Translations under genes and position numbers: made by a program
The notes under the pieces: generated by a model
Told to the model about the DNA's origin: nothing
The model's input: the letters and a program-made list of their open reading frames with translations, nothing else
Databases searched by the model: none
Shown here: positions 7,822 through 37,927 of the stretch, in pieces
Layout: the number at the start of each line of letters is the position of its first letter
Numbering within the stretch: position 1 is the first letter of the stretch
IMG/VR virus record: IMGVR_UViG_2698536355_000010
Length of the DNA: 39,062 bases
Source: a virus
Taxonomy: Duplodnaviria > Heunggongvirae > Uroviricota > Caudoviricetes
Direction: 5' to 3' (one strand)

Positions 7822-8250
7822 CGTTGGCCCCGCTTCTCTGAATCGCTTTATACCGCCATTCCAGCACTTCGGTCAGCGGCATAACGTCAGTAACGGATGG
7901 CGGCCAGTGAAAGATGGTGGCAATATCTGCCACCAGATCGTCAACCGTCAGGCTGTCGGTAAACCGGCAAGCACCGACTTCTTCAACAAAAAAGTGACAA
8001 CCTCAACCGACATGGCAGTGAGATCTGCCGGGTCCATCTCTGCAATTTCCTGTGCGGTCAGTGCCGGGCTGGAGATGCGGGGGATCACGGTCATCATCGC
8101 GTTCACATCCATATCCATAATGGCCTGCAGGCGTGTACCGCGCAGCGCACCGGACTGCGGTTTACGCAGCACAATTTCGGTGATTTCTGTTTTACCGCGC
8201 TTGATAGGGGTATCCAGTTGAATGGTCTTTTCAGTCTGCTTATCGCTCAT
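7814..8250 (-). CDS. E+E' fusion product via programmed -1 frameshift
   Basis: Slippery heptamer TTTTTTG on minus strand (plus coords 7987..7993). Manual translation of the -1 frame from 7987 gives VEEVGACRFTDSLTVDDLVADIATIFHWPPSVTDVMPLTEVLEWRYKAIQRSGANDE with no stops until TGA at 7814..7816, overlapping the T start as in P2. Confidence 0.6.
7948..8250 (-). CDS. E: tail assembly chaperone E
   Basis: 100-aa acidic ORF immediately upstream of T; contains slippery T_TTT_TTG in codons 86-88. Confidence 0.8.
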   Translation of the reverse strand: MSDKQTEKTIQLDTPIKRGKTEITEIVLRKPQSGALRGTRLQAIMDMDVNAMMTVIPRISSPALTAQEIAEMDPADLTAMSVEVVTFLLKKSVLAGLPTA

Positions 8251-10144: not shown

Positions 10145-10711
10145 TCAGGGAGATTCATTGCTCTTATTTGCCGGAAATTTTCTATAAATGGTAGAAACGC
10201 CTACATCAAAAATCAGTGCAATACGCAGTCTTGATTCTCCGGCCTCGAGTAAACGTCCAATCTGTGCCCACTGTTCGGTGGTCAACTTAGGACGGCGTCC
10301 ACCTACTCTGCCTTTAGCACGAGCTGCAGCCAGCCCTGCCCTGGTACGTTCAACTATCAGTTCGCGTTCCATTTCAGCCAGGGCACCCATGACATGAAAA
10401 AAGAAACGGCCCATTGGGGTACTGGTATCAATACTGTCAGTCAGGCTTCTGAAATTCACACCACGCTGGCGCAACTCTTCTATCAGCGTAACAAGATGCC
10501 GCATACTGCGCCCCAACCTGTCCAGCTTCCAGACAACCAGCGTGTCTCCTGCCGATAGTGTCCTGAGCAGTTTTTTCAGCCCCGGTCTGTCGGACTTAGT
10601 GCCACTGATTTTATCCTCAAAAATCCGCTCACATCCCGCGCAGTTCAGTGCATTACGTTGCAAATCGGTGTTCTGGTCATTTGTTGACACGCGTACATAG
10701 CCAATAAGCAT
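10145..10711 (-). CDS. serine-recombinase DNA invertase (Gin/Hin/Pin/Cin family)
   Basis: N-terminus MLIGYVRVSTNDQNTDLQRNAL with catalytic Ser motif and C-terminal HTH; start set at third ATG (10711) which has GGGGGA 5 nt upstream. Confidence 0.9.
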   Translation of the reverse strand: MLIGYVRVSTNDQNTDLQRNALNCAGCERIFEDKISGTKSDRPGLKKLLRTLSAGDTLVVWKLDRLGRSMRHLVTLIEELRQRGVNFRSLTDSIDTSTPMGRFFFHVMGALAEMERELIVERTRAGLAAARAKGRVGGRRPKLTTEQWAQIGRLLEAGESRLRIALIFDVGVSTIYRKFPANKSNESP

Positions 10712-10738
10712 GATCATCCCCCTGAATAAAAACCGGAG

Positions 10739-11877: not shown

Positions 11878-13362
11878 TTAGTATCCTATTGCTTCAAAAT
11901 GCAGTGTCGGTGTTTCGCCGAGATTGGGTGTCGTATACGCCACAGTGAATCGCGTTCTTGATACGTCAGCGCCAGAATCAGTATCGCGATGCGTTGACAG
12001 TGATTTTCCGGCCATTGTTGTCTGTTTCGAAAACTCTGAGCTCGCTAGTGTTGCCAGCGTTGCTATTTGTGCATTTGGGAATTGTCTGGGGAAATTAACC
12101 CTGTAGTAATGGGTGTAGTACGTCACCCCACCAAGCACCTGCGCGTTGAAGTTACCAACTGGTGTCAGTGTCACAGTGCCAGCCTGTCGAATCATACCAT
12201 TTGGGAGAATATCCCAGGCAGTTTGTCCGTTTCGCGACATACCAAATGCGGACATGTCCGGGAGTTGATTATTACCGGTTCCGACATCCCGTTTTGCCGC
12301 TTCTCCCAATTGAAGGTATGCGAGAAGACCAGCTACATCCTTTCCACTCAAATTAGTCAGCGTATTGTCCAGCGGTTGTTTACCTGCCAGCGCATTAAGC
12401 ATTGTCGTGGCAAAGTTCGGATCATTCCCCAGTGCCGCCGCCAGTTCGTTCAGTGTATCCAGTGCAGCAGGTGCAGAACCCACCATTGCCGCAATCGCCG
12501 ATTTCACAAAAGCCGTGGTGGCAATCTGTGTATTGTTGACCGACTGTGCCGCAGTAGGTGCTGTTGGCGTTCCGGTGAGTGCCGGACTCGACAACGGCGC
12601 TTTCAGTGCCAGCGCATTGTTAATGGTGGTACTGAAATTCGGATCATTGTTAATGGCTGCGGCTATTTCTTTTAGCGTGTCCAGCGTGGCTGGCGCACCA
12701 TTAATAAGGGCCGTCAGTGCCGCCTGAACAAACGCGGTGGTCGCAACCTGCGTGGTGTTATTCCCTGCCGCTGGCGTTGGCGCTTTGGGGGTTCCGGTAA
12801 ATGTCGGGCTGGCTTTTGGCGCATACTGTGAATGTGGGTCCTGTGCGGCAAGATGTTTTGCCATCAGGTCATCCACGTACACTTTCAGCTCCAGTACCTT
12901 GTCATCCACATACTTGCGGGTTGCCAGCACTACGGCAGGGTCGATTTTCAGGGTGATATTGTCCGTGCTGCTGGTAATCAGCACCATGCGCACGGTCTGG
13001 GTGCGCCCGCTGCCTTCAGCCAGTTGCGGCTTATAGCTTTCCGGGCAGTTGCCCACGGCAATCAATGCTCCGGACTCATCAAACAGGCCCACTTCACGTA
13101 TCCACCAACCGCCCTCGTTTTCAGGGATCACCTGTTCAGCAATAATCTGGCTGCTGTTCTGCGGGTCGATATAGAGCATATTCAGCGCAGCCCGGCGTTT
13201 CTCATTTACCAGTGCAGTCTGCTTTGCGTCCGGCGTTGGCAATGTCCCTCCGCCATCGCCGACCGCCATATGGGTAATTTTTAAAGGCACACCGAGCGCG
13301 GCGGCGCTGGCAAGTTTCGCCGCGCCAATATCCGTCAGCAGGGTATAAAATTTTGTGCTCAT
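11878..13362 (-). CDS. H: tail fibre protein H
   Basis: 494-aa ORF; N-terminal roughly 330 aa resemble P2 gpH (MAVGDGGG, AESYKP...AEGSGR, NELAAALGNDPNFATTM), C-terminal part divergent. Confidence 0.85.
   Translation of the reverse strand: MSTKFYTLLTDIGAAKLASAAALGVPLKITHMAVGDGGGTLPTPDAKQTALVNEKRRAALNMLYIDPQNSSQIIAEQVIPENEGGWWIREVGLFDESGALIAVGNCPESYKPQLAEGSGRTQTVRMVLITSSTDNITLKIDPAVVLATRKYVDDKVLELKVYVDDLMAKHLAAQDPHSQYAPKASPTFTGTPKAPTPAAGNNTTQVATTAFVQAALTALINGAPATLDTLKEIAAAINNDPNFSTTINNALALKAPLSSPALTGTPTAPTAAQSVNNTQIATTAFVKSAIAAMVGSAPAALDTLNELAAALGNDPNFATTMLNALAGKQPLDNTLTNLSGKDVAGLLAYLQLGEAAKRDVGTGNNQLPDMSAFGMSRNGQTAWDILPNGMIRQAGTVTLTPVGNFNAQVLGGVTYYTHYYRVNFPRQFPNAQIATLATLASSEFSKQTTMAGKSLSTHRDTDSGADVSRTRFTVAYTTPNLGETPTLHFEAIGY
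12311..12336. repeat. candidate invertase crossover site, left (inside H)
   Basis: Minus-strand ttctcgcatacc-tt-caattgggagaa matches the right site at 18 of 26 positions (9-bp block ttgggagaa identical), at the same position relative to the RDVG block. Confidence 0.35.
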
Positions 13363-13964
13363 GGATTCACTCTCATTGTGTCAATAACATGGACCACCCC
13401 GCCTTCATGCGCGGTGCCGCCAGAAATAATTGTTTCGTTGATATACGGATAGATCGTGATTTCTTCGCCAAGATAGCTGGCGGCACCCACCCAATGCGGA
13501 CCGCTGGTCTGCAGATTGATGGACATGCCGATCATGTGACGGCTACATGGTTTGGCATCGCTTATCAGTCGCTCAAGTTCCAGATAGGTATCTTCAGTGA
13601 TGCCCTGGTCCTGCACGCCGATATCCAGACGAAACGTGCCCGGTGTCTCTCCGGTCTGCCACCACTCAATAATGCGGATCAGAAAGCCGAACGGCTCCAC
13701 CACCCGACGCACGGCACTGGTGGTCCCTTTATGCTGATGAATATAAAAAGCATCCTTCACCACCTGGCGCTTGACGCTTTCTGTCCAGCCCTCGTCCCAG
13801 CGATCCACAGAGAACGCCCAGGCGAGATAAGGCAGGAAGCTGACCGGACAGGTAGCCGGATTCCACAAGTCACGCAGCGGCACCTGCAGATCAGAAATCC
13901 CGCTACAGGTCTGCGCCAGTCGGCGCTCCAGTGAAGTTGAACCCGGTGGCAGCAGACTATTCAT
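13359..13964 (-). CDS. I: baseplate assembly protein I
   Basis: 201-aa ORF between J and H, P2 gpI position. Confidence 0.8.
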   Translation of the reverse strand: MNSLLPPGSTSLERRLAQTCSGISDLQVPLRDLWNPATCPVSFLPYLAWAFSVDRWDEGWTESVKRQVVKDAFYIHQHKGTTSAVRRVVEPFGFLIRIIEWWQTGETPGTFRLDIGVQDQGITEDTYLELERLISDAKPCSRHMIGMSINLQTSGPHWVGAASYLGEEITIYPYINETIISGGTAHEGGVVHVIDTMRVNP

Positions 13965-14865
13965 CCGTTCCTCCGTTGGTTACGCTCCACTGCGTACATG
14001 ATGCGGCCTGTGTTTTGTTCAGGACCACATCAGCCAGCGGTGAAGCCAGTTCCACACGCTGAACACCCTCAACATGCAGCGCGGCACAAATAGCACTACG
14101 GCGAATATCCCGACCGAGCCGCGTCTGACTGGCGATGTACCTCTGCAGGCTGACTTTTGCCGCTGCCATTACCGGCTCTGCTTCCGGTCCCGGATAAAGA
14201 AAAATGGTGGCTTCCACACGGTACGGGATGATTTCTGCGCTGCGAACCGTCAGACGGTCAGCCACCGGGCGGACGTTCTCACTGTTCAGGGCTTTCTCCA
14301 CCACATCCAGCAAGTCTTTTTCTGCTGTTCCGTCGCCTTCGCGGCTAAGGACAGTCAGCACCACCTCTGCAGGTGCCGGACTGGTTGCACTGGCATCCGC
14401 CACCCGACCGTCGGCGCTTCGGGCATGAAATTCATAAGCGGCAGTTGGTCCCGCAACTGAAAGCCCCTCAAAGGCTGCAGGCACACGCAGGCGTAACGCT
14501 TCATCGCTTTCCATCACTGCTGCAACGGGCGGCACAGCGTCATCATCAGCAGGTGTCACCGTCAGACGTTTCACGTTGTAATTGGCGGCGAGCTGGTCAA
14601 GATCGCCGCCCATCGCGTAAGCCACCATTACCGCCTGCGCGGCTTCGTTAATGCGCTGGCGCAGAAGCAACTCACGGTAAGCGTTCTCCTGCAACAATTT
14701 GGTGACGGGTTCAGATTCCAGTTCCAGCGTACGCATCACAGCCTCCTGTTCATCTTTCGGATGAAGCGCCACAAATTCTGCCTTGCGTGCGGCAAGCAGC
14801 GTCTCAAAGTCCGGCACATCCACAATCTGCGGCGCAGGCAACTGCGAAAGGTCAATCACTGCCAT
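13957..14865 (-). CDS. J: baseplate assembly protein J
   Basis: Start set at internal ATG 14865 (MAVIDLSQLP) giving 302 aa as in P2 gpJ. Confidence 0.8.
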   Translation of the reverse strand: MAVIDLSQLPAPQIVDVPDFETLLAARKAEFVALHPKDEQEAVMRTLELESEPVTKLLQENAYRELLLRQRINEAAQAVMVAYAMGGDLDQLAANYNVKRLTVTPADDDAVPPVAAVMESDEALRLRVPAAFEGLSVAGPTAAYEFHARSADGRVADASATSPAPAEVVLTVLSREGDGTAEKDLLDVVEKALNSENVRPVADRLTVRSAEIIPYRVEATIFLYPGPEAEPVMAAAKVSLQRYIASQTRLGRDIRRSAICAALHVEGVQRVELASPLADVVLNKTQAASCTQWSVTNGGTDE

Positions 14866-15786: not shown

Positions 15787-15832
15787 ATGGAAATCATTGC
15801 CTATCGTAAACGACAGTGATATTAAAGAGGTT

Positions 15833-15850
15833 TGTGCAGTCACCCACACA
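15833..15850 (-). promoter_or_regulatory. candidate Ogr/B-dependent late promoter element (P_V)
   Basis: tgtgcagtcacccacaca, TGT-N12-ACA with the same extended pattern and orientation as the P_F and P_O dyads; centre only about 55 bp from V ATG. Confidence 0.4.
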
Positions 15851-15884
15851 AGATGATCATCAAATCTGTTTTGGAAGGATTCTT

Positions 15885-17405
15885 ATGAGTTGCTTAGATC
15901 AATTATCTTCAGAAAATAAAAAATCCCTATTATCATCAGTATTTTCAAAGAGCTATTTCCTCTGGATTGGCTCTGGATTTTCGTACAATTTCGGATATCC
16001 AAGTTGGGGGGCCGTACTTGAAGAAATAGCAAAGCGAATAGAGTACCCGTTAAAATTAGATTCATCACAGCCTCTGCGTGCTGCAGAATTACTTTTAAGT
16101 TATGCGATGAGTGAATCATCAATAAAAGAATATGATTTCAATTCGCTCGTTGCCAGGACGATTATAGATTTAAAAACAGAAACTAAAGAACCAAGATGGC
16201 TTAAAAGATTCAAACTCTTCGCTCCCAATACAATTGTAACAACTAACTGGGATGAGGTGCTTGAAGAAACATTTGAGCATATGGCAAATAAAATCATCAG
16301 AAAGGATCCATTCCCTAAAGTATCAACAAAAGGGAAAAATATCTTCAAAATTCATGGTGACGTCGGAAAACCTGATTCGATTGTTATAACACAAAGTCAA
16401 TACTTTTCTTTTCAGCGCGAAGACACTTATCTTAGCCGAAAAATTTACACATTGTTTTCAGAAATGTCCCCTATATTCATCGGTTACAGCTTAACCGACC
16501 CAAATATAGGTTTCCTTTATGAAGAAGCATTAGCACATCTGCATGGAAAAAACCCGCCAGCATTCATGGTAATTCACCCAGATGCAAACCCTTTAACTTT
16601 CGAGGAGACAAAGTATTTATTTAAATCAAAAAATATACACCTGATTAAAGCAACCATAGAAGACTTCCTTGCAGATTTATCTCAGGAATATAAATCCTTT
16701 AAAGAATCACCTCATCGTTTCAACCTTGAGCACGAACATGTTCTTCCCAAAATAAAAACTGTAATGGATACCGTTACGAAAGGAAAAAAAAATAAAAAAG
16801 CGGAACTAGAAGCCTTATGTCCTCAAAGAGCTGCAAGCTGGGCCGTGACAAAAGCCATAATTGACATTCTAAAGAAACCAATATTGTACATTCAATTCGG
16901 CGGAAAACTTCTTTCTCCAGACAATATTATCCCCTACAGAGAGTTCGATGCTTTAGTTAATGTAGTCATAACACTTAGCAACAATCACGGTTACCCTGAC
17001 GAGCTTATACGTCAAGATTTTCATGCTTCTGTTGTCAAAATGTGCATCGAAACAGAAGGGGTTTGGGACTTCAACTATGCTGAAGTACCTTTCTCTAACA
17101 TTTTAAGAATAAGCCCTAGCCCCGGCACTGAAAGTTTCGACAAAAAAATATCCCATATAATAGAAATTATGCGATGGTCGTCCCCATCTGAAATAGGGAA
17201 GTGCTGGGCAACATGGAATGTATTTAAAGAAAAACAAGATTGGATTAGCCACAGTGATATTGTTGGCATTCTTTCGAAACTTGAAACCGATGGTGACTTA
17301 GAATACCAACCCAGAGATAAAAAATGGCTAAACATCCTGAAAAAATGCCCTCACGCAACGGCTGCAGATATCAAGAGAATTGATACTCTGATAACCCCAG
17401 CTTAG
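15885..17405 (+). CDS. SIR2-like (DHS-like NAD-binding fold) protein with uncharacterised C-terminal domain
   Basis: Motifs FLWIGSGFS (GxGxS), IVTTNWDEVLEE (TTNYD-type), KIHGD, IFIGYSLTDPNI; ATG 15885 preceded by GGAAGGA; gene strongly AT-rich versus flanks. Confidence 0.8.
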   Translation: MSCLDQLSSENKKSLLSSVFSKSYFLWIGSGFSYNFGYPSWGAVLEEIAKRIEYPLKLDSSQPLRAAELLLSYAMSESSIKEYDFNSLVARTIIDLKTETKEPRWLKRFKLFAPNTIVTTNWDEVLEETFEHMANKIIRKDPFPKVSTKGKNIFKIHGDVGKPDSIVITQSQYFSFQREDTYLSRKIYTLFSEMSPIFIGYSLTDPNIGFLYEEALAHLHGKNPPAFMVIHPDANPLTFEETKYLFKSKNIHLIKATIEDFLADLSQEYKSFKESPHRFNLEHEHVLPKIKTVMDTVTKGKKNKKAELEALCPQRAASWAVTKAIIDILKKPILYIQFGGKLLSPDNIIPYREFDALVNVVITLSNNHGYPDELIRQDFHASVVKMCIETEGVWDFNYAEVPFSNILRISPSPGTESFDKKISHIIEIMRWSSPSEIGKCWATWNVFKEKQDWISHSDIVGILSKLETDGDLEYQPRDKKWLNILKKCPHATAADIKRIDTLITPA

Positions 17406-23346: not shown

Positions 23347-25113
23347 ATGAACACCACACTGACACCCGCAGATCTCGATCCCCGTCGGCAGGCCATGCTG
23401 CTGTACTTTCAGGGATACCGCGTAGCCCGCATTGCTGAAATGCTGGGCGAGAAAGTTGCAACCGTTCACAGCTGGAAAAAACGCGACAAGTGGGGTGACT
23501 ATGGGCCGCTGGATCAGATGCAGCTCACCACCGCCGCACGCTACTGCCAGCTCATTATGAAGGAGCACAAAGAAGGGAAAGATTTCAAAGAGATTGACCT
23601 GCTGGCGCGCCAGTCGGAACGCCACGCGCGGATCGGCAAGTTTAACAATGGCGGCAACGAAGCCGACTTAAACCCTAACGTCGCCAACCGCAACAAAGGC
23701 CCGCGCCGTCAGCCGGAAAAGAATGTTTTCACCGATGAGCAGATTGAGAAGCTGGAAGAAATCTTCCATTCCTCCATGTTCAACTACCAGCACCACTGGT
23801 GGGAAGCCGGAAAAACCAACCGCATCCGCAACCTGCTGAAGTCACGCCAGATCGGCGCGACCTTTTACTTTGCCCGTGAAGCCCTGATTGACGCTCTGCT
23901 TACCGGACGTAACCAAATTTTCCTTTCCGCCAGCAAGGCACAGGCCCACGTCTTTAAGCAGTACATCATCGACTTCGCTAAAGAAGTGGAGGTGGAGCTG
24001 AAAGGCGATCCGATGGTGCTTCCTAACGGGGCCACGCTTTACTTCCTCGGCACCAATGCCCGCACGGCCCAGAGTTATCACGGCAACCTGTATCTGGATG
24101 AATATTTCTGGATACCGAAATTCCAGGAGCTGCGCAAAGTGGCTTCCGGTATGGCTATTCACAAAAAATGGCGACAGACCTATTTTTCCACGCCATCCAG
24201 CCTGACACACAGTGCTTATCCGTTCTGGTCCGGTGCGCTGTTCAACCGTGGGCGCAACAAAGCCGATAAGGTGGACATCGACCTGTCCCACAGCAATCTG
24301 GCCCCCGGCCTGCTGTGCGCAGACGGACAATACCGCCAGATAGTCACCGTGGAAGATGCGGTGCGCGGCGGCTGTAACCTGTTCGACCTTGACCAGTTGC
24401 GCATGGAATACAGCCCGGACGAATACCAGAACCTGCTGATGTGTGAGTTCGTGGACGATCTCGCGTCCGTGTTCCCGCTCAGCGAACTGCAGGCGTGCAT
24501 GGTGGACAGTTGGGAAGTCTGGACCGACTTTCATGCACTGGCCCTGCGCCCGTTTGGCTGGCGCGAAGTATGGATCGGTTATGACCCCGCAAAAGGTACT
24601 CAGAACGGCGACAGTGCCGGATGCGTGGTGGTGGCACCGCCAGCCGTACCGGGCGGTAAATTCCGCATTCTTGAGCGTCACCAGTGGCGCGGGATGGACT
24701 TCCGCGCTCAGGCTGACGCCATCAAAAAACTGACCGAACAGTACAACGTGACTTATATCGGTATCGACTCAACCGGCGTTGGTCACGGGGTTTACGAGAA
24801 CGTGAAAGCATTCTTTCCTGCCGTCCGGGAGTTTGTCTACAACCCCAACGTTAAAAACGCCCTGGTGCTCAAGGCCTACGACATTATCAGCCACCGCCGT
24901 CTGGAGTTTGACGCCGGGCACACCGACATTGCGCAATCATTTATGGCAATCCGTCGCGCTACCACCGCCAGCGGCAACCGCCCGACCTATGAAGCCAGCC
25001 GCAGCGAAGAAGCCAGCCACGCCGATCTGGCCTGGGCAACGATGCACGCACTGTTTAACGAACCGCTGCAGGGCGAATCCGCCAATGCCAGCAATATTGT
25101 GGAGATTTTTTGA
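23347..25113 (+). CDS. P: terminase ATPase (large) subunit P
   Basis: 588-aa ORF, P2 gpP-like. Confidence 0.9.
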   Translation: MNTTLTPADLDPRRQAMLLYFQGYRVARIAEMLGEKVATVHSWKKRDKWGDYGPLDQMQLTTAARYCQLIMKEHKEGKDFKEIDLLARQSERHARIGKFNNGGNEADLNPNVANRNKGPRRQPEKNVFTDEQIEKLEEIFHSSMFNYQHHWWEAGKTNRIRNLLKSRQIGATFYFAREALIDALLTGRNQIFLSASKAQAHVFKQYIIDFAKEVEVELKGDPMVLPNGATLYFLGTNARTAQSYHGNLYLDEYFWIPKFQELRKVASGMAIHKKWRQTYFSTPSSLTHSAYPFWSGALFNRGRNKADKVDIDLSHSNLAPGLLCADGQYRQIVTVEDAVRGGCNLFDLDQLRMEYSPDEYQNLLMCEFVDDLASVFPLSELQACMVDSWEVWTDFHALALRPFGWREVWIGYDPAKGTQNGDSAGCVVVAPPAVPGGKFRILERHQWRGMDFRAQADAIKKLTEQYNVTYIGIDSTGVGHGVYENVKAFFPAVREFVYNPNVKNALVLKAYDIISHRRLEFDAGHTDIAQSFMAIRRATTASGNRPTYEASRSEEASHADLAWATMHALFNEPLQGESANASNIVEIF

Positions 25114-26147
25114 TGGGAAAGAGTAAGAAGAACCGCGCTGCGGCGACGAATCAGATCCAGCTTAAAAGTCAAACTACAGCCGAAGCATTCAGCTTCGGCG
25201 ATCCCGTTCCTGTTCTGGACCGCCGAGAATTACTGGACTATGTGGAATGCGTACAGATGGACCGTTGGTATGAGCCGCCCGTCAGCTTTGACGGACTGGC
25301 GCGCACCTTCCGCGCTGCCGTGCATCACAGTTCCCCGATTGCAGTAAAGTGCAACATTCTGACCAGTACCTATATCCCTCACCCGCTGCTCAGCCAGCAG
25401 GCTTTTTCACGTTTTGTGCAGGACTACCTGGTATTTGGTAACGCCTACCTGGAGAAACGCACGAACCGCTTCGGTGAAGTTATCGCCCTTGAGCCTGCGC
25501 TGGCAAAATACACCCGACGCGGGTTAGACCTGGATACCTACTGGTTTGTGCAATACGGTATGACAACCCAGCCGTATCAGTTCACGAAAGGCAGCATTTT
25601 TCATCTGATGGAACCGGACATCAACCAGGAGATCTACGGCTTGCCCGGCTATCTTTCTGCCATTCCATCCGCCCTGCTCAACGAATCCGCCACGCTGTTC
25701 CGCCGTAAGTATTACATCAACGGCAGCCATGCAGGCTTCATCATGTACATGACCGACGCCGCGCAGAATCAGGAGGATGTGAACAACCTCCGCAACGCGA
25801 TGAAAAGCGCCAAAGGTCCAGGCAACTTCCGCAACCTGTTTATGTACTCGCCTAACGGCAAAAAGGACGGGCTTCAGATCATTCCTCTGTCAGAAGTCGC
25901 AGCGAAGGATGAGTTTCTGAATATCAAAAATGTCAGTCGCGATGACATGATGGCAGCACACCGCGTACCGCCGCAAATGATGGGGATTATGCCGAATAAT
26001 GTTGGGGGTTTTGGGGATGTGGAGAAGGCGAGTCGAGTTTTTGTGCGAAATGAATTGAGGCCACTACAAAAGAGCCTATTAGAGCTGAACAACTGGTTAA
26101 AGGAGGATGTAATACATTTTGAGGATTATAACTTAGATATTCAATAA
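25110..26147 (+). CDS. Q: portal protein Q
   Basis: 345 aa; AEAFSFGDPVPVLDRR..LDYVEC...WYEPPVSF matches remembered P2 gpQ; last approx 60 codons AT-rich and divergent. Confidence 0.9.
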   Translation: MMGKSKKNRAAATNQIQLKSQTTAEAFSFGDPVPVLDRRELLDYVECVQMDRWYEPPVSFDGLARTFRAAVHHSSPIAVKCNILTSTYIPHPLLSQQAFSRFVQDYLVFGNAYLEKRTNRFGEVIALEPALAKYTRRGLDLDTYWFVQYGMTTQPYQFTKGSIFHLMEPDINQEIYGLPGYLSAIPSALLNESATLFRRKYYINGSHAGFIMYMTDAAQNQEDVNNLRNAMKSAKGPGNFRNLFMYSPNGKKDGLQIIPLSEVAAKDEFLNIKNVSRDDMMAAHRVPPQMMGIMPNNVGGFGDVEKASRVFVRNELRPLQKSLLELNNWLKEDVIHFEDYNLDIQ

Positions 26148-26151
26148 TCTT

Positions 26152-26175
26152 AAAAACCTGCATATGCAGGTTTTT
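26152..26175. terminator. bidirectional hairpin terminator between Q and the cargo operon
   Basis: aaaaa-cctgcatatgcagg-ttttt, palindrome flanked by an A-run and a T-run. Confidence 0.6.
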
Positions 26176-26210: not shown

Positions 26211-26876
26211 TCAAAGCTCTGAGTCTACAGGCTCATGATAAAGGTTTACAGGGTAGTGTATAACCTCATAATTAAGTTGACTAACAGTGTGAGTATGTTG
26301 ACTGTAAAAAACCAATGGGTTTCTCTTACAAGGAGTTATCGAGATAGACTTACAAGCATGAATTCTTGGAGCCGATTTATCTAAATGAGCCTTCCACTTA
26401 GTCATCATTTCATTACATTTTTTATTACGCGTATATATAATTAACCCACCACTTGCACTGTCTACAGTACCAGTGCTATATCGCTCAGTGAGTTGTGCAT
26501 ACCCTTTAAATAAATAACCATATGAACCAGTGTGTTTTTTGGCCTCGCCATGCCAAGTAAATCTATTCAACTTTATTGTTATATCACAATGACCTCGTTG
26601 ATTATTTTCATGATATGCTTCAATTCCCATATCTTTATTTTTTATATTTGCCAGTAAAATTAAAGTAAGCTGATCTTCTGTTAAATCAAAATTCAATTTA
26701 TTTGAATTTTCCTCAATTGCCTGTACAGCAGAATCAAGCTCAATTCTTACAAACTGTTTGACGTTCTCATACGACTGGAGAGCAAACCTAACGCGAGTAA
26801 TAGAAGCATTGATACGCTGAAGAAAAATATCATTATCAATTTCAGCTAAACTCATTGGTGCAGACATTTTTAACAT
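26211..26876 (-). CDS. hypothetical protein, cargo operon gene 3 (possible PD-(D/E)xK-like motif)
   Basis: 221 aa; ATG overlaps upstream stop (ATGA); HCDITIK...(14)...GEAKK resembles a D...ExK motif; AT-rich. Confidence 0.6.
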   Translation of the reverse strand: MLKMSAPMSLAEIDNDIFLQRINASITRVRFALQSYENVKQFVRIELDSAVQAIEENSNKLNFDLTEDQLTLILLANIKNKDMGIEAYHENNQRGHCDITIKLNRFTWHGEAKKHTGSYGYLFKGYAQLTERYSTGTVDSASGGLIIYTRNKKCNEMMTKWKAHLDKSAPRIHACKSISITPCKRNPLVFYSQHTHTVSQLNYEVIHYPVNLYHEPVDSEL

Positions 26877-27310
26877 CAGACAATATCCTTTAATTTAGAT
26901 TCATCTAATGTAAAAAAAGGAAAGACGAAGGACTTATAGTCATACATAATCTCCCCTGTAAATGGGTTTACTAAAGATTGATTAATTTCAGCCTCTATAA
27001 CATCTTCTAACTCAAGCTCAATAGGATCATGAAAATCATCAATAAACCAATAATTGAGTTTTAAAAACTCAACCTTTGGACTACAAAGAATTTGTATAGC
27101 TGGGTACACAACCTGCTCATATGCTTCAGGTTGTATACATCCTTTATAACCATTAACGATACTAAATAAATCTTTATAACTCAGAGCTATATTAGGCGAT
27201 TTCTTTGCTCTCACACCAATTTCATCATACAAATAGCAAGCTAGCGCCCCTATATCAGGGCGCTCTGCACATATTTCTTTGATGATCTGGGGCATATCAC
27301 CATCCTTCAT
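26876..27310 (-). CDS. hypothetical acidic protein, cargo operon gene 2
   Basis: 144 aa from ATG 27310 with GGAG 6 nt upstream; tightly packed between genes 1 and 3. Confidence 0.55.
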   Translation of the reverse strand: MKDGDMPQIIKEICAERPDIGALACYLYDEIGVRAKKSPNIALSYKDLFSIVNGYKGCIQPEAYEQVVYPAIQILCSPKVEFLKLNYWFIDDFHDPIELELEDVIEAEINQSLVNPFTGEIMYDYKSFVFPFFTLDESKLKDIV

Positions 27311-27322
27311 TGCTGACTCCAA

Positions 27323-28429
27323 TTATAATATCAGCTTTGTGAGGGTTTCGAAATCATCTTTGGATATACATTTGCTTAATATAGCATAATTGACAGGAGA
27401 GCACCCACTACCACCTAAATGTCTGCGTAATGTTCCTGGAATGATAAGCTCTACACTATCCGCCAATTGCAATTTTGGATTATTCCTATCTACTCTAATT
27501 CCAATACGATATAAACCAATATTACCTACAGCTTTAATGCCCTCTTTATTAAACAGATCATCACGCAAGTCTTTCTTAGCCACATTTTTCTTTTCCTTAT
27601 GAGTGGTTCCCTCATAAGTTAAAAATGACAAATCGAACACCTTATAACTTAAACTTGAATATGGCATTACATTTTGCTTGAAAATTGGCTCAATTAATGG
27701 ATAAAAATCCTTTTCCGATGAATTAAATTGATAACCTGCGCAATTATATAACTCACGAATAAAATTCGTTTTCGCAAAAACGATATTATCACCAACAACA
27801 TTACCATTAGTATCAATTAATACATGGATTTTATTTGAAGCTGAATCTAATATACACACATCAAAACACTGACGTTTTTCTTTTCTCTTCGCAATGATTT
27901 CATCAAACTGTTTGTATGCTGCTAACTTTGACGGAGGGACTTTCTCTCTTACAACCAGCTCCCTGATAGATGAAAATACCAAAATAGACTGAGTATTTTG
28001 CTTAGAGTAATTAACAAGCTCAAGTTGATTTTTAATAGCATGCTGTAATTGAACATCATCAACAATCGTTTCGACTAATGATGTTGGTTGCTTCATCATA
28101 TTCCATTGGAGAGCATATCTATCATCAAGTAATTTAATTACTTGACTATCTACAGACAAACTAAATATTGCTTTTTCACCATAAACAACCTGCCCAAAGA
28201 CTAAATCATTTACACTTGCAATGATTTTGTCAAATTTTTGCCTATCTTTCTTTTTAAAATCAATGAGGCTTTCTAGTATTTTGTCGTTTGTTGCTTCACG
28301 CCCTCTACCTGTAGGTAGCCCTAAAGAAGCAATAATTGGTCTGGCGATATGCCACGTAAAACGTTCAGTTAAGGCTAAGATCGACTTTAACTCAAAGTCA
28401 GAAAGCACCACTGGGACACCACTTGTCAT
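27323..28429 (-). CDS. hypothetical protein, cargo operon gene 1
   Basis: 368 aa from ATG 28429 with AGGTG upstream; no nucleotide-binding or other motif recognised by eye; AT-rich. Confidence 0.6.
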   Translation of the reverse strand: MTSGVPVVLSDFELKSILALTERFTWHIARPIIASLGLPTGRGREATNDKILESLIDFKKKDRQKFDKIIASVNDLVFGQVVYGEKAIFSLSVDSQVIKLLDDRYALQWNMMKQPTSLVETIVDDVQLQHAIKNQLELVNYSKQNTQSILVFSSIRELVVREKVPPSKLAAYKQFDEIIAKRKEKRQCFDVCILDSASNKIHVLIDTNGNVVGDNIVFAKTNFIRELYNCAGYQFNSSEKDFYPLIEPIFKQNVMPYSSLSYKVFDLSFLTYEGTTHKEKKNVAKKDLRDDLFNKEGIKAVGNIGLYRIGIRVDRNNPKLQLADSVELIIPGTLRRHLGGSGCSPVNYAILSKCISKDDFETLTKLIL

Positions 28430-28589
28430 AACATGCACCTAGTCAACCCAAAAGCAATTGAAAATCGCTCTTGTCTTAATTTTTTCCATCAATATCTAAC
28501 AAATTACCTTAATGTTGAAAAAGTTTGCAAGCCATTTGCGTCTAAAAAGTGACTTGACTCAATGTGTTACAAAGCTTAGCGAGCGCGCG

Positions 28590-28608
28590 CTCGTATCCCC
28601 GCCACGCC
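28590..28608 (-). other. cos-like cohesive-end site
   Basis: Minus strand reads GGCGTGGCGGGGATACGAG followed by CGCGCGCT, closely resembling the remembered P2/186 cos (GGCG[A/T]GGCGGGGAAAGCA...GCGCGCT). Confidence 0.5.
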
Positions 28609-28647
28609 TGCCCGCTTTATGTAGTGGTTTTCATGCACCTGCATGAC

Positions 28648-28676
28648 ATAAGCAAAAGCCCGCCAGCTCTGGCGGG
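28648..28676 (-). terminator. rho-independent terminator downstream of HNH gene
   Basis: Stem gcccgccag/ctggcgggc (28657..28676) followed on minus strand by TTTTGCTT. Confidence 0.5.
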
Positions 28677-28790
28677 CATCAGCAAAAACGATCCTCAAAC
28701 GATCATGCGATTTCATGCGACATAGACATGCGTTGGCAAAAATGTACGAAATACTCAGCTTACAGGAAATGGTCTTTTTCCAACCTCCAG

Positions 28791-29510
28791 TTAGCCAAAG
28801 CAGAAACCAATATTGCAATTTGAAACTCCACAGTTGTGAAATTGATGTGGACCGACTCTTAGCTTGTGTTCGTCTCCTACAATCCGAGTCCCCTTAACCA
28901 ACATATCTAATCTTTCCACAATCAATCTTTCAGGCGCATCAACTTTAATAATTAAACGAGGACCTTTCCTTTTTTCTATAATAGTTATTCTAGGACCAAC
29001 AACCTGAACATCCCAATGCCTTGCACTACAAACCCACTCATTCTTAATTAATTCAAGATTAACAATACCTTGACTATCGTAAAATTTACCCGAAATAAGA
29101 AAAGCATTATTTTCTTTTTCAATGGTTAACAATGGCTCATTTTGAAACATTATTGGTACAGTACAGGATTCAAACGTCGCACCACCAAATATTATTGTTG
29201 GATGCCTATCAGAAAAGTCCAATATATCGGCCACATTCCCTTTTTGTAAGGCTGCAGGAGATTCCATTGCTTTAATTATTTTCTCTTTAGAGTAAAGACG
29301 TTTCGTTACTTTCGCATGGCACGTAGGACAAAGTAGTGCTATTGCATTTGGAGAGTGCTCCTTTGCATCAGCGTATGTGGGAATTACATGCTCATACTCA
29401 ACAATGGGAGAAGCACAAACAACGCAACCAAAGCCACAGCGCTGCCTTACCTCCAGTTTTACAGGTTCAGGAATTGTTCTAGATAACCCATGCTTGTTAA
29501 TAGTTGTCAT
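28791..29510 (-). CDS. HNH-endonuclease-domain protein
   Basis: N-terminal CGFGCVVC...EYEHVIP...N...LLCPTCH (HNH pattern); C-terminal 160 aa unassigned; AT-rich; AAGGTAAGG before ATG. Confidence 0.7.
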   Translation of the reverse strand: MTTINKHGLSRTIPEPVKLEVRQRCGFGCVVCASPIVEYEHVIPTYADAKEHSPNAIALLCPTCHAKVTKRLYSKEKIIKAMESPAALQKGNVADILDFSDRHPTIIFGGATFESCTVPIMFQNEPLLTIEKENNAFLISGKFYDSQGIVNLELIKNEWVCSARHWDVQVVGPRITIIEKRKGPRLIIKVDAPERLIVERLDMLVKGTRIVGDEHKLRVGPHQFHNCGVSNCNIGFCFG

Positions 29511-30218: not shown

Positions 30219-32633
30219 TTAATACAGGTTCCGCCACTTATCATCTTCCTGCAAACGCTGGTTCCGATAGAAGATACGCAGGCCTGCTCCTGACGGAATA
30301 CTGCCACCGCGAAGGAGCAAATCGACCTCTTTCTCGCTGCCATCAAATCCTCTGGACTTCAGTTCATAGACGAGCTGCTGACGCTGATACTCTGTAATTC
30401 GCTGTTTGTAGTCTTTACGCCGTTTCGGTTTAACCAGGCGTAATCTTGCTGCCAGTTCCCGGCGCTCTTTTTTGCTCATACTGTGCAGGTAATCGTGCAA
30501 CTCCTTGTCATCCATGCGGGTGATATCCGTTCTGGTATCCCCATCAGCTGATTTGTCTTTCCCTTGTTGGTTCAAATTTTCAGCAAGGGGACAGTTATTG
30601 CCACGAGTCCAAGGGGCGCAAGCGCCCTGGTCGGCTGCCGCCTCCTGAACGTCAACGGCTTTACGAACCATTTTCCACTTCACTGCATGAGTGCAGATCT
30701 TGCCCTCTGCAATGGGTGACCAGATGCCATAAATACGAATGCCGTGATCGCCATAGGCGGTCGGCTCTTCGTTGATTTCATAAGCGGTTCTGATGAGGTG
30801 ATATTTACGGGGAACCAGTACGCCGCCCTGCTTCATGATGTAGGTGGCAAAACAACCAGCATCAGCAGCAGCCAGAATGGCATCAAGGCGCGGGTTATCC
30901 AGTACCGGCGCACCTGCTTTTTTGTCACCCTGTTGCCTTGCCGCCTGACCAGCCAGCAAGCGAAGTTCACGGTAAGCCTGACGCCCCGGAATACCAAAGA
31001 AGCGGAATTGCTGAACACGATGCAGAGACGCCCAGGCATTCACGTATTCAGCGTTATCACGCAGAGATTTACCCGTTTCCTTGCTGATCTCGCCAGCCAG
31101 ACCACGACCGTCAATGTTCTTACTGATATATTTCGCGATGTAGCTTGTCGGCGTTCCTTTGCGCGGGTTAATCAACTCAGACTTAAAGCGCGGCCCAGTG
31201 TTATTGCCCAGCTCCTCGCGGTCTTCACGGATGGCAAACTTACGCAGTAATGCAGTGATGGCACGGCGGTCTTTTTTGCGCATGAAACACAACAGGTGCC
31301 AGTGAACTGTGCCATCATGATGCGGCTCAGCCACCCGCACGCCATACCAGCGCAACCCGGCTTTGTGCATCGCCTTACGAAATGCAGCAAACATGCCGAC
31401 CAGATAATCGCTGCTTTGTCTTACCGTCGCGTTTGTCCAGGTCGGGTTTGGTCTGCCGTTATTTAGCGTGGAATGGAAACGCGACGGACAGGTGATAGTG
31501 TAGAAAACGGCGCAGTCACCGCGCATTTCCGCGATAAGCTCCAGACCTTTAACACAGGCCATCATCTCATTGCGGCGATGCGCAGGGTTGCTGCTGCTGG
31601 CGTTTACCACATCCTCCATGTCCAGCGTGTCGCCGTCTTCGTTCACCAGTTCATGAGAACGGAAAAACTCCAGCGACTTACGGCGCTGCTCACGTTTATG
31701 CATCACGGCTTCATAGCTGACATAAGGAGATGCTTTTTTGCTGACCAGGCAAACAGCGCGCAACTGCTCTTCCCGCCATTCGCAACGCATCTTCCATAAT
31801 TTCCGATACCACCAGTCGGCGCACAACATACGCGCCAGCGAACCCGGAATGAGTTCATAGGGCACGGGTTTACGGCGGTTTCTTTTCCGGCGGAGTTGCT
31901 CAAACGCAGGTGGGATGACATCCAGACGCAGGGTTTCCGCTGCCACCTTTTCCCATGTCTTGCGGATTTCTTCTGGCTTAACGTCATCGGTGGCATACAA
32001 ATCACCACAAGCTGCATCAAGGCACATACTCATATGCGCAGCTACCAGGGTGGACAGGCGTTTCACCTGATCCTGACTCATTTCAGGCAGGATCAGCAGG
32101 CCGTCCAGCCCTTCATGGCTTGCCATAAAGCGAAAAGATGCAGATAGCTGACTGTCGCGTACATGCTCCAGTCGTTCCAGACATGGCTTAATCGTCTCAC
32201 GTAAATAGCGGGAATAAGCCTTTGGCCTGCCCAGGCTGCTGAAGTATTCAATACGTTGCATCAGCGGCTTGCTGATATGGGAAGGCTGGGCGTTGACGTC
32301 CGCCAGAATGACCATGTCTGAATTAAAACGCTGCTGCTCATGCGCCAGCTTTGCCCGGCTAATGAGCTTATCCTGCTCCATTTCGCGCTGGACAGGATCA
32401 CGTGATTCATTAAAGAAATAACGCTCCCAGACCTGATCACTCAGTGCCTCGCGGCGCAACTGTTCCTGCTCGTTATCGGCAGCGTACAGAGTGATCAGGT
32501 TTGAAAGCGTAGAAACCGGCGCAACTTCCGCCGGGTCCAGATAAGGGTTAATGGCCTTTTTCGGGCTGTTCCATGAGAATGCTGCGGCAGCCTCGTTAAA
32601 GCCGCAGCAGTTGTTCATATCGGCATGACTCAT
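30219..32633 (-). CDS. A: replication initiation endonuclease A (rolling-circle)
   Basis: 804-aa ORF, P2/186 gpA-like size and position. Confidence 0.85.
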
Positions 32634-35633: not shown

Positions 35634-36230
35634 ATGTCAACATCAAAGTACCCAAGTGAGATCAAAATAAATCCCAATAAAGGTGGTAAGGCTGCGATTG
35701 AGCGATTAGTCGAAGCCTATGGCTTTACGACACGACAGGCTTTAGCTGATCACTTGGAAGTATCAAAAAGCACACTAGCGAACAGGTATTTGCGGGATAC
35801 ATTTCCTGCTGACTGGATAATCCAATGTGCTCTTGAAACAGGAACCTCCCTCAAATGGTTAACTACCGGACAAGGCCTTAAGCAAAGCTCGCTGACAGCA
35901 GCTACAGAAGAGCTTGTTAAGTTTCGCCTTGCCGCAGGCAAAATGATTGAAGACGGTTCATATGTCTTCGATTCATCATTTCTTCCTGCAAACCTTTCAT
36001 CACCAATTGTTGTTCAGGATGGACTCGTCACATACATTTGTGATCAAAAATTTTCTGAAGTACTTGATGGAAACTGGTTAATCAATATCGACGGAACCTA
36101 TTCCATTCGAAAAATCACAAGGCTTCCTAAAGGAAGGATTAAAATTACAACAGCAGAGAATAGCTTTGAATGTGCATTTTCTGATATTGAAGTGGTTGCT
36201 TGTATAAGAAGTACAATAGTCTCGAATTAA
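35634..36230 (+). CDS. cI: CI immunity repressor (phage 186 type)
   Basis: 198-aa ORF with N-terminal HTH (TTRQALADHLEVSKSTLANR); divergent from apl. Confidence 0.8.
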   Translation: MSTSKYPSEIKINPNKGGKAAIERLVEAYGFTTRQALADHLEVSKSTLANRYLRDTFPADWIIQCALETGTSLKWLTTGQGLKQSSLTAATEELVKFRLAAGKMIEDGSYVFDSSFLPANLSSPIVVQDGLVTYICDQKFSEVLDGNWLINIDGTYSIRKITRLPKGRIKITTAENSFECAFSDIEVVACIRSTIVSN

Positions 36231-36250: not shown

Positions 36251-37927
36251 ATGAATTCATTTGCCATCGTTATACTCTTATTAGCATTTCTCGCCCCTGT
36301 TCTAGCTGTAATATTATTTAAACAAAGTAAAAAACACAAAGCGGCTATAGATAACCTGACAGCTAACAACATAGCCCTTTCTAACCAACTGATTGAAAAT
36401 CAAGAAAAACTAGCACAGACCGTACGAGAATTATCAGAGCTTGAAGGGCGAGCAGCACCATTGTGGCAATACGAAGAATTGCACAGCGCAGTAATGGATG
36501 CAGAGAATAAGATAAAAAATGCGGACTCAATAGCCAAGCAAAAAATAGATGAAGCCCAAATTAAGGCGGCTAAAACAGTAAACGAAGCAAATTATCAAGC
36601 TCAGATGACAATAAGCAACGCTAATAGCGAAGCTATAGCAATCACCAAAGACGCTCGCGATGCACGCCTGAAAGCCAAAGAACGTCTTGATAATGCTAAT
36701 AATAAAGCAAATGAGCTAATCTCAAATGCTAATGACAATGCAGTAAAAATTATTTCTGATGCAGAAGAAAGAGCAAAGGAGATTGCTGGTTCAGCATATG
36801 AAGCTAAAGAGTTTGCAGAAAAATATGAAGCAGTTGCAAAATCAATGAAAAATAAAATTGAAGGTTATGGTGATGAATGGATCATCCCTAACCGTAGTGT
36901 ACTTGATGAGCTGGCAGAAAATTATGAATTTACAGATGCAGGCAAGGAATTACAAAAAGCCAGAGAGTTAACCAAATCATTAATAAAAACTAATAAAGCT
37001 GCTTCGTGTGATTATGTTGAGCAAAACAGGCGTAATACTGCCATAAACTTTGTTTTGGATGCCTTCAATGGAAGAGTTGACAGTATTTTATCAAAAGTCA
37101 AACACAACAATTTTGGAAAACTTTCCCAAGAAATAAAAGATGCATTTCAACTAGTAAATTACAATGGCTCTGCCTTTAGGTCCGCAAAAATAAGTGACAT
37201 CTATCTTCAGGCAAGACTCAACGAGCTAAAATGGGGTGTAGCAGTTAATGAAATTATGCTCGAAGAAAAAGAAGAGCAAAGAAGGATTAAAGAACAGCTT
37301 CGTGAAGAGGAAAGAGCTCGTAGAGAATATGAAAAAGCGATAAAAGAAGCTGAAAAAGAAGAAAAAGCTATTCAGCAAGCTATAAATAAAGCAACGAAAG
37401 AACTTATGCTTGCAAATGAAGAACAACGCTTAGCTTTAGAGCAAAAAATAGCTGAACTACAGTTAAAATATGAAGAAGCTGAAGCTAAAAATCAACGAGC
37501 TATTTCTATGGCTCAACAAACCAGATCAGGCCACGTCTATATCATTAGTAATATTGGTTCATTTGGCGAAGATGTATATAAAATTGGAATGACACGCCGC
37601 CTTGAACCACTTGATCGTGTTCGTGAACTCGGAGATGCTAGTGTTCCTTTTTCGTTCGATGTTCATGCGATGATTTATAGTGATGATGCACCATCATTAG
37701 AAAACCATCTGCATAAAGTTTTCAACGAAAAGCAGGTCAATAAAATTAACTCACGAAAAGAGTTTTTTAACGTAAATTTAAAAGAAATCAAATCAGTTAT
37801 TGAAGACATGAACATCAACGCCCACTGGACAATGTTTGCAGAGGCGAAAGAATATAGAGAGTCTCTAGCTATTGAGCAGGAGCGCAAAGCAGCCACTTCC
37901 GCCAACGATGAACTACATGTTGCTTAG
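36251..37927 (+). CDS. membrane-anchored coiled-coil protein with C-terminal T5orf172/GIY-YIG-like domain
   Basis: N-terminal TM helix (FAIVILLLAFLAPVLAVILF), roughly 400 aa A/E/K/N-rich coiled coil, C-terminus VYIISNIGSFGEDVYKIGMTRR...PFSFDV...LENHLHKVF...EFF; AT-rich; AGGA before ATG. Confidence 0.75.
   Translation: MNSFAIVILLLAFLAPVLAVILFKQSKKHKAAIDNLTANNIALSNQLIENQEKLAQTVRELSELEGRAAPLWQYEELHSAVMDAENKIKNADSIAKQKIDEAQIKAAKTVNEANYQAQMTISNANSEAIAITKDARDARLKAKERLDNANNKANELISNANDNAVKIISDAEERAKEIAGSAYEAKEFAEKYEAVAKSMKNKIEGYGDEWIIPNRSVLDELAENYEFTDAGKELQKARELTKSLIKTNKAASCDYVEQNRRNTAINFVLDAFNGRVDSILSKVKHNNFGKLSQEIKDAFQLVNYNGSAFRSAKISDIYLQARLNELKWGVAVNEIMLEEKEEQRRIKEQLREEERARREYEKAIKEAEKEEKAIQQAINKATKELMLANEEQRLALEQKIAELQLKYEEAEAKNQRAISMAQQTRSGHVYIISNIGSFGEDVYKIGMTRRLEPLDRVRELGDASVPFSFDVHAMIYSDDAPSLENHLHKVFNEKQVNKINSRKEFFNVNLKEIKSVIEDMNINAHWTMFAEAKEYRESLAIEQERKAATSANDELHVA

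Follow-up and report, generated by a model that had tools for sequence, protein, structure and literature searches.

A three-gene cassette on the minus strand of a P2-like Escherichia coli prophage (IMG/VR virus record IMGVR_UViG_2698536355_000010, of which the whole stretch of 39,062 nucleotides analysed here is referred to as the window) is probably a self-contained mobile system acting in anti-phage defence or in competition between mobile elements, with a nuclease as its candidate effector. The cassette consists of gene A (27323-28429; 368 amino acids (aa) from an ATG, or 371 aa from an alternative GTG at 28438), whose product has a predicted RdgC fold, gene B (26876-27310; 144 aa from an ATG, or 148 aa from an alternative TTG at 27322), and gene C (26211-26876; 221 aa), whose product is a predicted PD-(D/E)xK nuclease with a BamHI/OkrAI-like fold and an N-terminal three-helix segment. 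An earlier, sequence-only reading of the window had placed three minus-strand genes encoding 368, 144 and 221 aa between the portal gene and the cos site, and the open reading frames found there agree with RefSeq, in which identical genes of equal lengths in strain SA53-3 encode the hypothetical proteins WP_021580613, WP_021580614 and WP_021580615. It had also described an ATGA overlap, in place of which the B/C junction reads TGATG, with an overlap of 1 nucleotide, and A and B are separated by a gap of 12 nucleotides. A GGAG sequence 8 nucleotides 5' of the ATG of gene B was read as a ribosome-binding site, and B is considered to be translationally coupled to C.

The trio is interpreted as a candidate anti-phage system from where it lies, from its composition and gene content, and from a machine-learning score. 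It was favoured because the trio occupies a hotspot slot in which it is itself rare, its flanks are common and defence genes are among the alternative occupants, and because it combines a foreign GC content with a predicted nuclease effector, a protein of predicted RdgC fold, an obligate three-gene arrangement, mobility between types of element and the score assigned to A by DefensePredictor. The presence of other defence cargo in AT-rich slots of the same prophage was a further reason for this interpretation.

The cos-proximal slot between gpA and gpQ of P2 is a defence hotspot with 1,650 gene arrangements, from which several cloned systems were protective (Rousset 2022, PMC9122126), and the trio lies at the position by which that hotspot is defined. 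In the window, the slot is bounded by the portal gene Q (25110-26147, plus strand), an open reading frame annotated as 'phage portal protein' in the identical RefSeq locus and serving as a conserved anchor outside the cassette, and by the replication gene gpA (30219-32633), with the trio at 26211-28429 and a cos-like 19-mer, GGCGTGGCGGGGATACGAG, at 28590-28608 on the minus strand. The portal domain PF04860 was likewise detected in related loci. The 19-mer, representing the cohesive-end site of P2-family phages, shares 14 of its 19 positions with the P2 cos, GGCGAGGCGGGGAAAGCAC, and an identical sequence forms the cos region of the E. coli E1114 P2-like clone (Rousset Table S2A); relative to cos, the operon thus lies on the Q side. 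Between the stop codon of Q and cos there are 2.4 kb in the window versus 167 bp in P2, as counted on the P2 sequence of the same table, rather than the approximately 130 bp that the earlier reading had attributed to P2. That reading had also described the trio as far more AT-rich than the phage backbone, which is reflected in a GC content of 0.343 compared with 0.544 for Q together with the terminase gene P (23347-25113) and 0.530 for gpA.

A conserved block of approximately 150 bp in the cos region (28583-28731) forms the gpA-side boundary of the variable slot. When the slot was searched by megablast against 5,426 complete E. coli genomes, with presence of the trio defined as at least 80% of the query covered, this block was recovered from approximately 1,277 genomes and the trio from 21. 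Expressed relative to the approximately 1,288 genomes having the flanking portal and cos sequences, these 21 correspond to approximately 1.6% of P2-like prophages, and they comprise two sequence variants, approximately 99% and approximately 85% identical. The block was also present, at 90-96% identity, in P2-like phages of Escherichia, Klebsiella, Salmonella and Yersinia, and in phage GenBank records it was the block alone that matched, with no trio found. Occupancy of the slot was surveyed with a query comprising the 3' end of Q, the trio and cos, from which 60 records were sampled evenly down the ranking. In these the slot was empty or had any of more than 15 different occupants, among them genes for DUF4145, SieB, KAP-type P-loop NTPase, TIR, SEFIR, DprA with or without PRTase, AIPR, PIN, HIRAN, DUF262, DUF4062, an ATP-dependent (OLD-like) nuclease, RelA/SpoT with ParA, and TIGR02391, and one near-empty record spans 763 bp only. 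Among these occupants, the combination of DprA and PRTase has been validated as defence (Rousset 2022, PMC9122126). Status as accessory cargo, and not as a core component of the phage, is strongly supported. The suggestion of horizontally acquired cargo made in the sequence-only reading is upheld by the scarcity of the trio among flank-bearing genomes, the varied occupants, the GC shift and the occurrence of the trio in other types of element; the same genes are not a feature of most P2-family phages, and no homology to morphogenesis or packaging proteins was found for any of the three products.

An AlphaFold2 model of the gene C product, built from an alignment of 38 sequences (predicted local distance difference test score, pLDDT, 90), has a restriction-endonuclease-like α/β core, of which the nearest folds are BamHI, OkrAI, BstYI and BglII, followed by the CdiA-CT EC869 DNase toxin, McrC, HamA and NucC. 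In this model D98 is situated at the start of strand 99-103, and E111 and K113 lie within strand 106-114. Neither the 38 homologues nor a wider set comprising 20, with identities down to 33%, show any variation at these three residues, and E67, D68 and Q128 are likewise invariant with homologues at 33% identity included. On account of the BamHI-like fold and the invariant D98, E111 and K113, C is a predicted PD-(D/E)xK nuclease, and the D...ExK nuclease-like motif that the earlier reading had noticed in the last gene is thereby borne out. A set of histidine and cysteine residues beyond this triad, comprising H89, H96, C97, H115, C183, H196 and H207, was also observed to be invariant or nearly so, and may constitute a structural site or a second metal site.

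The predicted structure of A, modelled from 35 sequences (pLDDT 84; predicted template modelling score 0.83), matched RdgC of E. coli (E 2.4e-6) and of Pseudomonas aeruginosa (E 3.6e-5) in Foldseek at a probability of 1.00 with most of the protein aligned, followed by CENP-N, and the two-domain RdgC fold was reached by two independent methods. The kinship of A to RdgC is, as judged from these models, structural only and without sequence membership, as comparison by hhalign of an A profile (71 sequences) with E. coli RdgC gave a probability of 0.9% and no sequence homology. RdgC, the λ exclusion sensor RexA and IML3-CHL4 share a two-domain DNA-binding scaffold, as reported with the RexA crystal structure (PMC11077077); RdgC itself forms rings, binds DNA non-specifically and inhibits RecA functions (PMC11077077). 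RexA was absent among the structural matches listed for A. Across the superfamily, at approximately 20-25% identity, residues K86, D190, E202/R204/D206 (consensus 'IExRxD'), R289, G297, E327 and C354 are invariant or nearly so, and position 294, an asparagine in the window protein, is a histidine in 90% of relatives. Conserved charged and polar residues of this kind would be unexpected for a passive RdgC-type clamp; they may belong to an active site or a pocket for a ligand, or to a surface contacting DNA or a partner protein.

The combination of a putative DNA-binding A with a restriction-like C also lends itself to a more specific interpretation, in which the trio would operate as a methyltransferase-free, type IV-like restriction system, with A scanning DNA and C cleaving modified or otherwise marked foreign DNA without abortive infection. 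Structurally, C comes closest to type II restriction endonucleases and McrC, the conserved trio includes no methyltransferase, and a ring- or horseshoe-shaped DNA binder of the kind suggested by RdgC could slide along or scan DNA. Set against this, no NTPase domain or motif was detected in A, B or C, leaving such a system with no translocase comparable to McrB, and there is no recognisable modification-reading domain. This version is regarded as very improbable, and on present data it is indistinguishable from the broader model of nuclease-based defence, of which it would form a sub-case.

The association of the three genes extends well beyond E. coli. Close homologues of A fall into 40 clusters, those of C into 38 and those of B into 11, all from Enterobacterales. 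A search of the A profile against 1.84 billion cluster representatives, with superfamily size counted as clusters at 50% identity, returned 431 proteins at E <= 1e-3, of which 232 reach E <= 1e-10; the best 150 of the 431 are mostly full-length, at approximately 340-380 aa, and 10 sampled distant relatives gave no Pfam match and a single marginal PADLOC match (E 0.004). Wherever the DNA context of distant A homologues could be read, a B-like gene of approximately 135-145 aa is next, and where the contig continues past it, a C-like gene of approximately 211-223 aa with the same catalytic motif follows. The reciprocal search from C identified 39 loci, of which six are in species-representative genomes (two Pantoea, Rosenbergiella, Methylotenera, Acinetobacter and a metagenome-assembled genome of Lysobacteraceae) and 33 are IMG/VR viral contigs. 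In all of these C-based loci, B is directly 5' of C and an A-like gene is 5' of B; the A match in the Acinetobacter genome locus is weak (E 2e-6), and in two similarly divergent viral contigs A is below the detection threshold. The A-B-C order therefore appears, from these gene neighbourhoods, to be strictly co-conserved across Gamma- and Betaproteobacteria. One IMG/VR contig has a C 100% identical to that of the window and the same gene arrangement. Identities to the window proteins C, A and B are 62, 58 and 48% in Pantoea, 58, 48 and 34% in Serratia, and 53, 40 and 31% in Providencia, such that C is the best conserved of the trio among close relatives and B the fastest to diverge.

The genomic settings of these loci are varied. 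Most viral contigs have the order gpA, A-B-C, Q and P, which is that of the P2 hotspot, whereas in a Providencia locus (L002) and one other (L045) the trio is beside a P4-type α primase, as in P4-like satellites. The Providencia locus was considered as an instance of the canonical cos-adjacent P4 hotspot, and this was rejected; the trio lies between α and psu/δ, and BLAST places cos approximately 2.3 kb away, beyond psu and delta. In a Pantoea locus (L013) the trio is found among TraI_2, ArdC and integrase genes, indicative of a conjugative or integrative element, and elsewhere it adjoins P2-type tail genes in an Acinetobacter prophage (L015) or an integrase (L009). Three IMG/VR contigs (L021-L023) have the trio within lambdoid prophages, in the nin-type region between the replication genes O and P and the antiterminator Q, beside DinI. 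The homology of these three to the window runs from 28677 to 25950 (approximately 5205-7929 in the lambdoid locus), covering the P2 cos region, the trio and approximately 200 bp of the 3' end of the portal gene, from which it is concluded that a 2.7-kb P2 fragment, cos included, was transplanted whole into a lambdoid genome.

A Serratia locus (L003) differs from the above in having the trio beside a lone portal gene and an ogr gene, with PRTase-CE/NADAR and phospholipase/ankyrin genes nearby. The prophage of the window is flanked by an Asp-Al_Ex/TrkA_C host transporter gene (935-2620, plus strand), a homologue of which (12853-14541 of the Serratia locus) flanks that locus. The Serratia locus has the appearance of a P2-like prophage that decayed at the equivalent attachment region but retained the cassette.

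The occurrence of the trio beside DinI-like genes in both P2-like and lambdoid contexts raises the question of whether it serves the phage itself, as a DNA-metabolism or host-manipulation module in which an RdgC-like modulator of RecA, recombination or the SOS response is paired with a structure-specific nuclease, for a purpose like that of the neighbouring DinI or for counter-defence. The reported inhibition of RecA functions by RdgC (PMC11077077) is compatible with such a role, PD-(D/E)xK nucleases include recombination and repair enzymes, and the invariant charged residues of A suggest more than passive DNA binding. However, a module present in approximately 1.6% of E. coli P2-like prophages, and replaced in others by unrelated defence genes, is evidently not needed for the phage life cycle. 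Further, the nearest folds to C are restriction enzymes, a toxin and defence nucleases and not resolvases or RecB-type repair nucleases, A has no sequence homology to RdgC, and an independent model scores A as defensive. A phage-serving role is accordingly seen as unlikely, and the candidate defence system remains the favoured interpretation of the trio.

The small protein B is acidic and predicted to be cytoplasmic, with an isoelectric point (pI) of 4.4 in the window and 4.4-5.7 across homologues. Close to its C-terminus lies the one motif that recurs, HP.TGE..DY...FPFF, and neither Pfam nor PDB sequences gave a match to B, profile search included. A hydropathy scan identified no membrane segment in A, B or C, the maximum Kyte-Doolittle values in a 19-residue window being 1.10, 1.05 and 0.60, respectively, and less than 1.6 for all homologues. 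The simplest mechanism for a defence system of this composition would be a sensor-adaptor-effector arrangement, in which A, probably dimeric, would bind DNA or form a ring around it and recognise either some property of phage DNA that is entering or replicating or a DNA-bound phage protein, as proposed for RexA. B would then couple A to C, or would restrain C or A, for example as an acidic DNA-mimic-like inhibitor or as an adaptor, or it may be the component that determines specificity. Once triggered, C would cut DNA, leading either to destruction of the invader or to death of the infected cell through abortive infection, and the lysogen and its prophage would in this manner be protected from competing phages.

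A similar gene arrangement could arise if the trio served to stabilise the prophage as a toxin-antitoxin or addiction module, with C as a DNase toxin, B as a labile antitoxin and A as a regulator or chaperone, any anti-phage effect being secondary. The small acidic B is encoded directly 5' of the nuclease gene and translationally coupled to it, the cassette is always on mobile elements, and the rapid divergence of B among close relatives is a frequent property of antitoxins. However, a conserved 368-aa A with invariant residues of its own would be superfluous for a simple pair, and it was never lost in the 39 loci, while B has neither a helix-turn-helix nor a known antitoxin domain. The two interpretations also overlap, as many such hotspot modules act as abortive-infection defence, DprA-PRTase among them (PMC9122126). 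Addiction as the primary function is judged to have a low probability, about on a par with that of a phage-serving module.

Database and literature searches placed the trio in no named family, in agreement with the sequence-only reading, which had been unable to fit one. None of A, B and C was assigned to a family at E <= 1 in Pfam, NCBIfam or PADLOC (for PADLOC, 0 families in PADLOC-DB v2.0.0), profile searches of the three against PDB sequences gave no match, and in PHROGs the only families are 12777, 11490 and 9664, all of 'unknown function'. In Table S5A of Rousset 2022 (PMC9122126) the three accessions appear as 'hypothetical' in two hotspot arrangements, and Table S5B of the same study records an 85%-identical variant 36 times, as system 91 and without a name. 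The systems cloned in that work, validated or not, do not include the trio, and no motif match was found in its Table S2. DefensePredictor (Science 2026) assigns WP_021580613.1 a mean log-odds of 8.40, against a strict cut-off of 4, under the heading 'Putative novel defense gene', and within the supplements of that study the accession occurs in the prediction table only. The E. coli defence-island supplements of Hochhauser 2023 contain no mention of the trio. The descriptions of the six P4-hotspot systems of a 2026 preprint in which uncharacterised genes of that hotspot were assayed (Crouga, Bandua, Aernus, Toga, Reve and Hailong) do not fit, and its supplements hold no motif or accession match; these candidates were rejected. 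Searches of the literature for the accessions, or for RdgC or RdgC-like proteins in defence, returned the RexA structure paper as the only relevant item, with no paper found linking an RdgC-like protein and a nuclease in defence, and no record of the cassette having been cloned was found. The cassette is therefore one that two independent surveys have catalogued or predicted to be defensive, but that is unnamed; as far as could be found, its assignment to a predicted RdgC-fold protein with a BamHI-like PD-(D/E)xK nuclease, on the basis of the structural models, is first made here.

Several considerations weigh against reading the trio as a defence system. Only approximately one third of the hotspot systems cloned by Rousset 2022 were protective (PMC9122126), the validation rate of DefensePredictor among cloned units was 45%, and hotspots of this type also bear partition systems, cytolethal distending toxin and other cargo unrelated to defence (PMC9122126). 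The pI of A ranges from 5.5 to 9.1 across homologues, such that the sequence gives no sign of a generally basic surface for DNA binding, and the invariant charged residues K86, D190, D206 and R289 suggest that A may act as an enzyme or bind a ligand, for which the proposed mechanism does not account. The roles given to A and B, and the formation of any complex between the proteins, are conjectural.

A more ambitious proposal, advanced tentatively and considered rather doubtful, is that the trio founds a widespread NTPase-free immune family, in which an RdgC/RexA-fold clamp would sense phage DNA or replication and recombination intermediates and license a BamHI-like nuclease via a fast-evolving acidic adaptor. 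In a stronger variant of this proposal, the site formed by K86, D190, D206 and R289 of A would represent a new enzymatic or signal-binding activity. If the proposal is true, the sensing principle of λ Rex would be tied to a soluble nuclease effector, and RdgC-fold proteins would gain a general role in immunity. Should the cassette prove protective, it would represent a defence family of unusual architecture, in which a restriction-like nuclease would work with an RdgC-fold protein and an acidic adaptor but without an ATPase, and would offer a tractable soluble model for infection sensing by RdgC/RexA-fold proteins, a question that λ Rex has posed for decades. Members of the family are already widespread in Proteobacteria and move between P2-like, lambdoid, satellite and conjugative elements, and the cassette, at approximately 2.3 kb, is compact and directly testable.

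Beyond the coding sequences, two non-coding elements adjoin the trio. The region between cos and gene A (28439-28589, minus strand) is directly 5' of the operon and is covered by the homology with the three lambdoid contigs; the operon promoter is presumably located here, and a scan of this region for the sigma-70 consensus gave no convincing site. At the other end, between the convergent Q (stop at 26147) and C (stop at 26211), a hairpin, AAAAACCTGCATATGCAGGTTTTT, occupies 26152-26175 as a perfect palindrome, CCTGCATATGCAGG, flanked by A5 and T5. From its sequence this palindrome is probably a bidirectional intrinsic terminator. It was not flagged by a terminator consensus scan, probably because its stem is short.

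In addition to its Dam methylase, CI repressor and integrase, the prophage has further cargo. A second AT-rich slot (GC approximately 0.37), among the tail genes, encodes a SIR2-domain protein of 529 aa (15816-17405, plus strand) with matches to Pfam SIR2_2 (3.5e-26) and to the PADLOC models PDC-S25 (7.6e-29) and ThsA-like (7e-25). A third, between the CI repressor (35634-36230) and the integrase (starting at 38010), is occupied by a 558-aa PD-Lambda-1 match (36251-37927, plus strand; PADLOC 2.4e-120) with T5orf172/MUG113 and DUF4041 domains. On the gpA side of cos, an HNH-motif protein of 239 aa (28791-29510, minus strand; GC 0.38) matches Pfam HNH (2.4e-5) and phrog_6544 (unknown function), with marginal PADLOC matches only (best E 0.0095, to a type IV restriction-enzyme model). 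As the HNH gene is absent from SA53-3, which has the same trio, it was regarded as independent cargo, and with the SIR2/ThsA-like, PD-Lambda-1 and HNH genes present besides the trio, the phage can be described as multi-cargo. Separately, a serine recombinase of the resolvase/invertase type (Pfam 2.2e-53; 10145-10717, minus strand) was noted in the tail-fibre region beside small opposite-strand open reading frames, which suggests that the tail-fibre segment is invertible.

Comparison with known systems indicates similarities to several, each accompanied by differences. The validated system Rst_3HP ('hp + hp + hp', Rousset 2022) shares with the trio its hotspot, its three genes without recognisable domains and a similar size, and identity with this system was considered and rejected as the families are unrelated; searches (hmmsearch --max) with profiles of the A, B and C families against the three Rst_3HP proteins of plasmid pFR109 gave scores of approximately 0-2 bits, at most 2.1, and PADLOC v2 models gave no match to the trio. 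The type II enzymes BamHI, OkrAI and BglII resemble C in fold at 7-9% sequence identity, and C differs from them in an extra conserved N-terminal helical segment, in having no cognate methyltransferase and in its constant linkage to A and B. In Hachiman (HamA/HamB), CBASS (NucC) and McrBC, a regulated PD-(D/E)xK effector is likewise present, but together with a helicase, ATPase or cyclase partner for which the trio has no equivalent. The P2 genes old and tin, and the other occupants of the gpA-gpQ slot, share with the trio a niche and a presumed purpose, the exclusion of competing phages, and Old is likewise a nuclease; however, Old is encoded on the gpA side of cos and belongs to the ATPase-Toprim nucleases, whereas the trio is on the Q side and has a predicted PD-(D/E)xK nuclease with no ATPase. 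The comparison with λ Rex concerns the putative sensor, as A resembles RdgC in predicted fold, a scaffold reported to be shared by RexA, but is approximately 70-90 residues longer, with an extra N-terminal helical region. The polytopic membrane effector RexB has no counterpart in the trio, none of whose proteins has a hydrophobic segment, and the place of that effector is presumed to be taken by a soluble nuclease.

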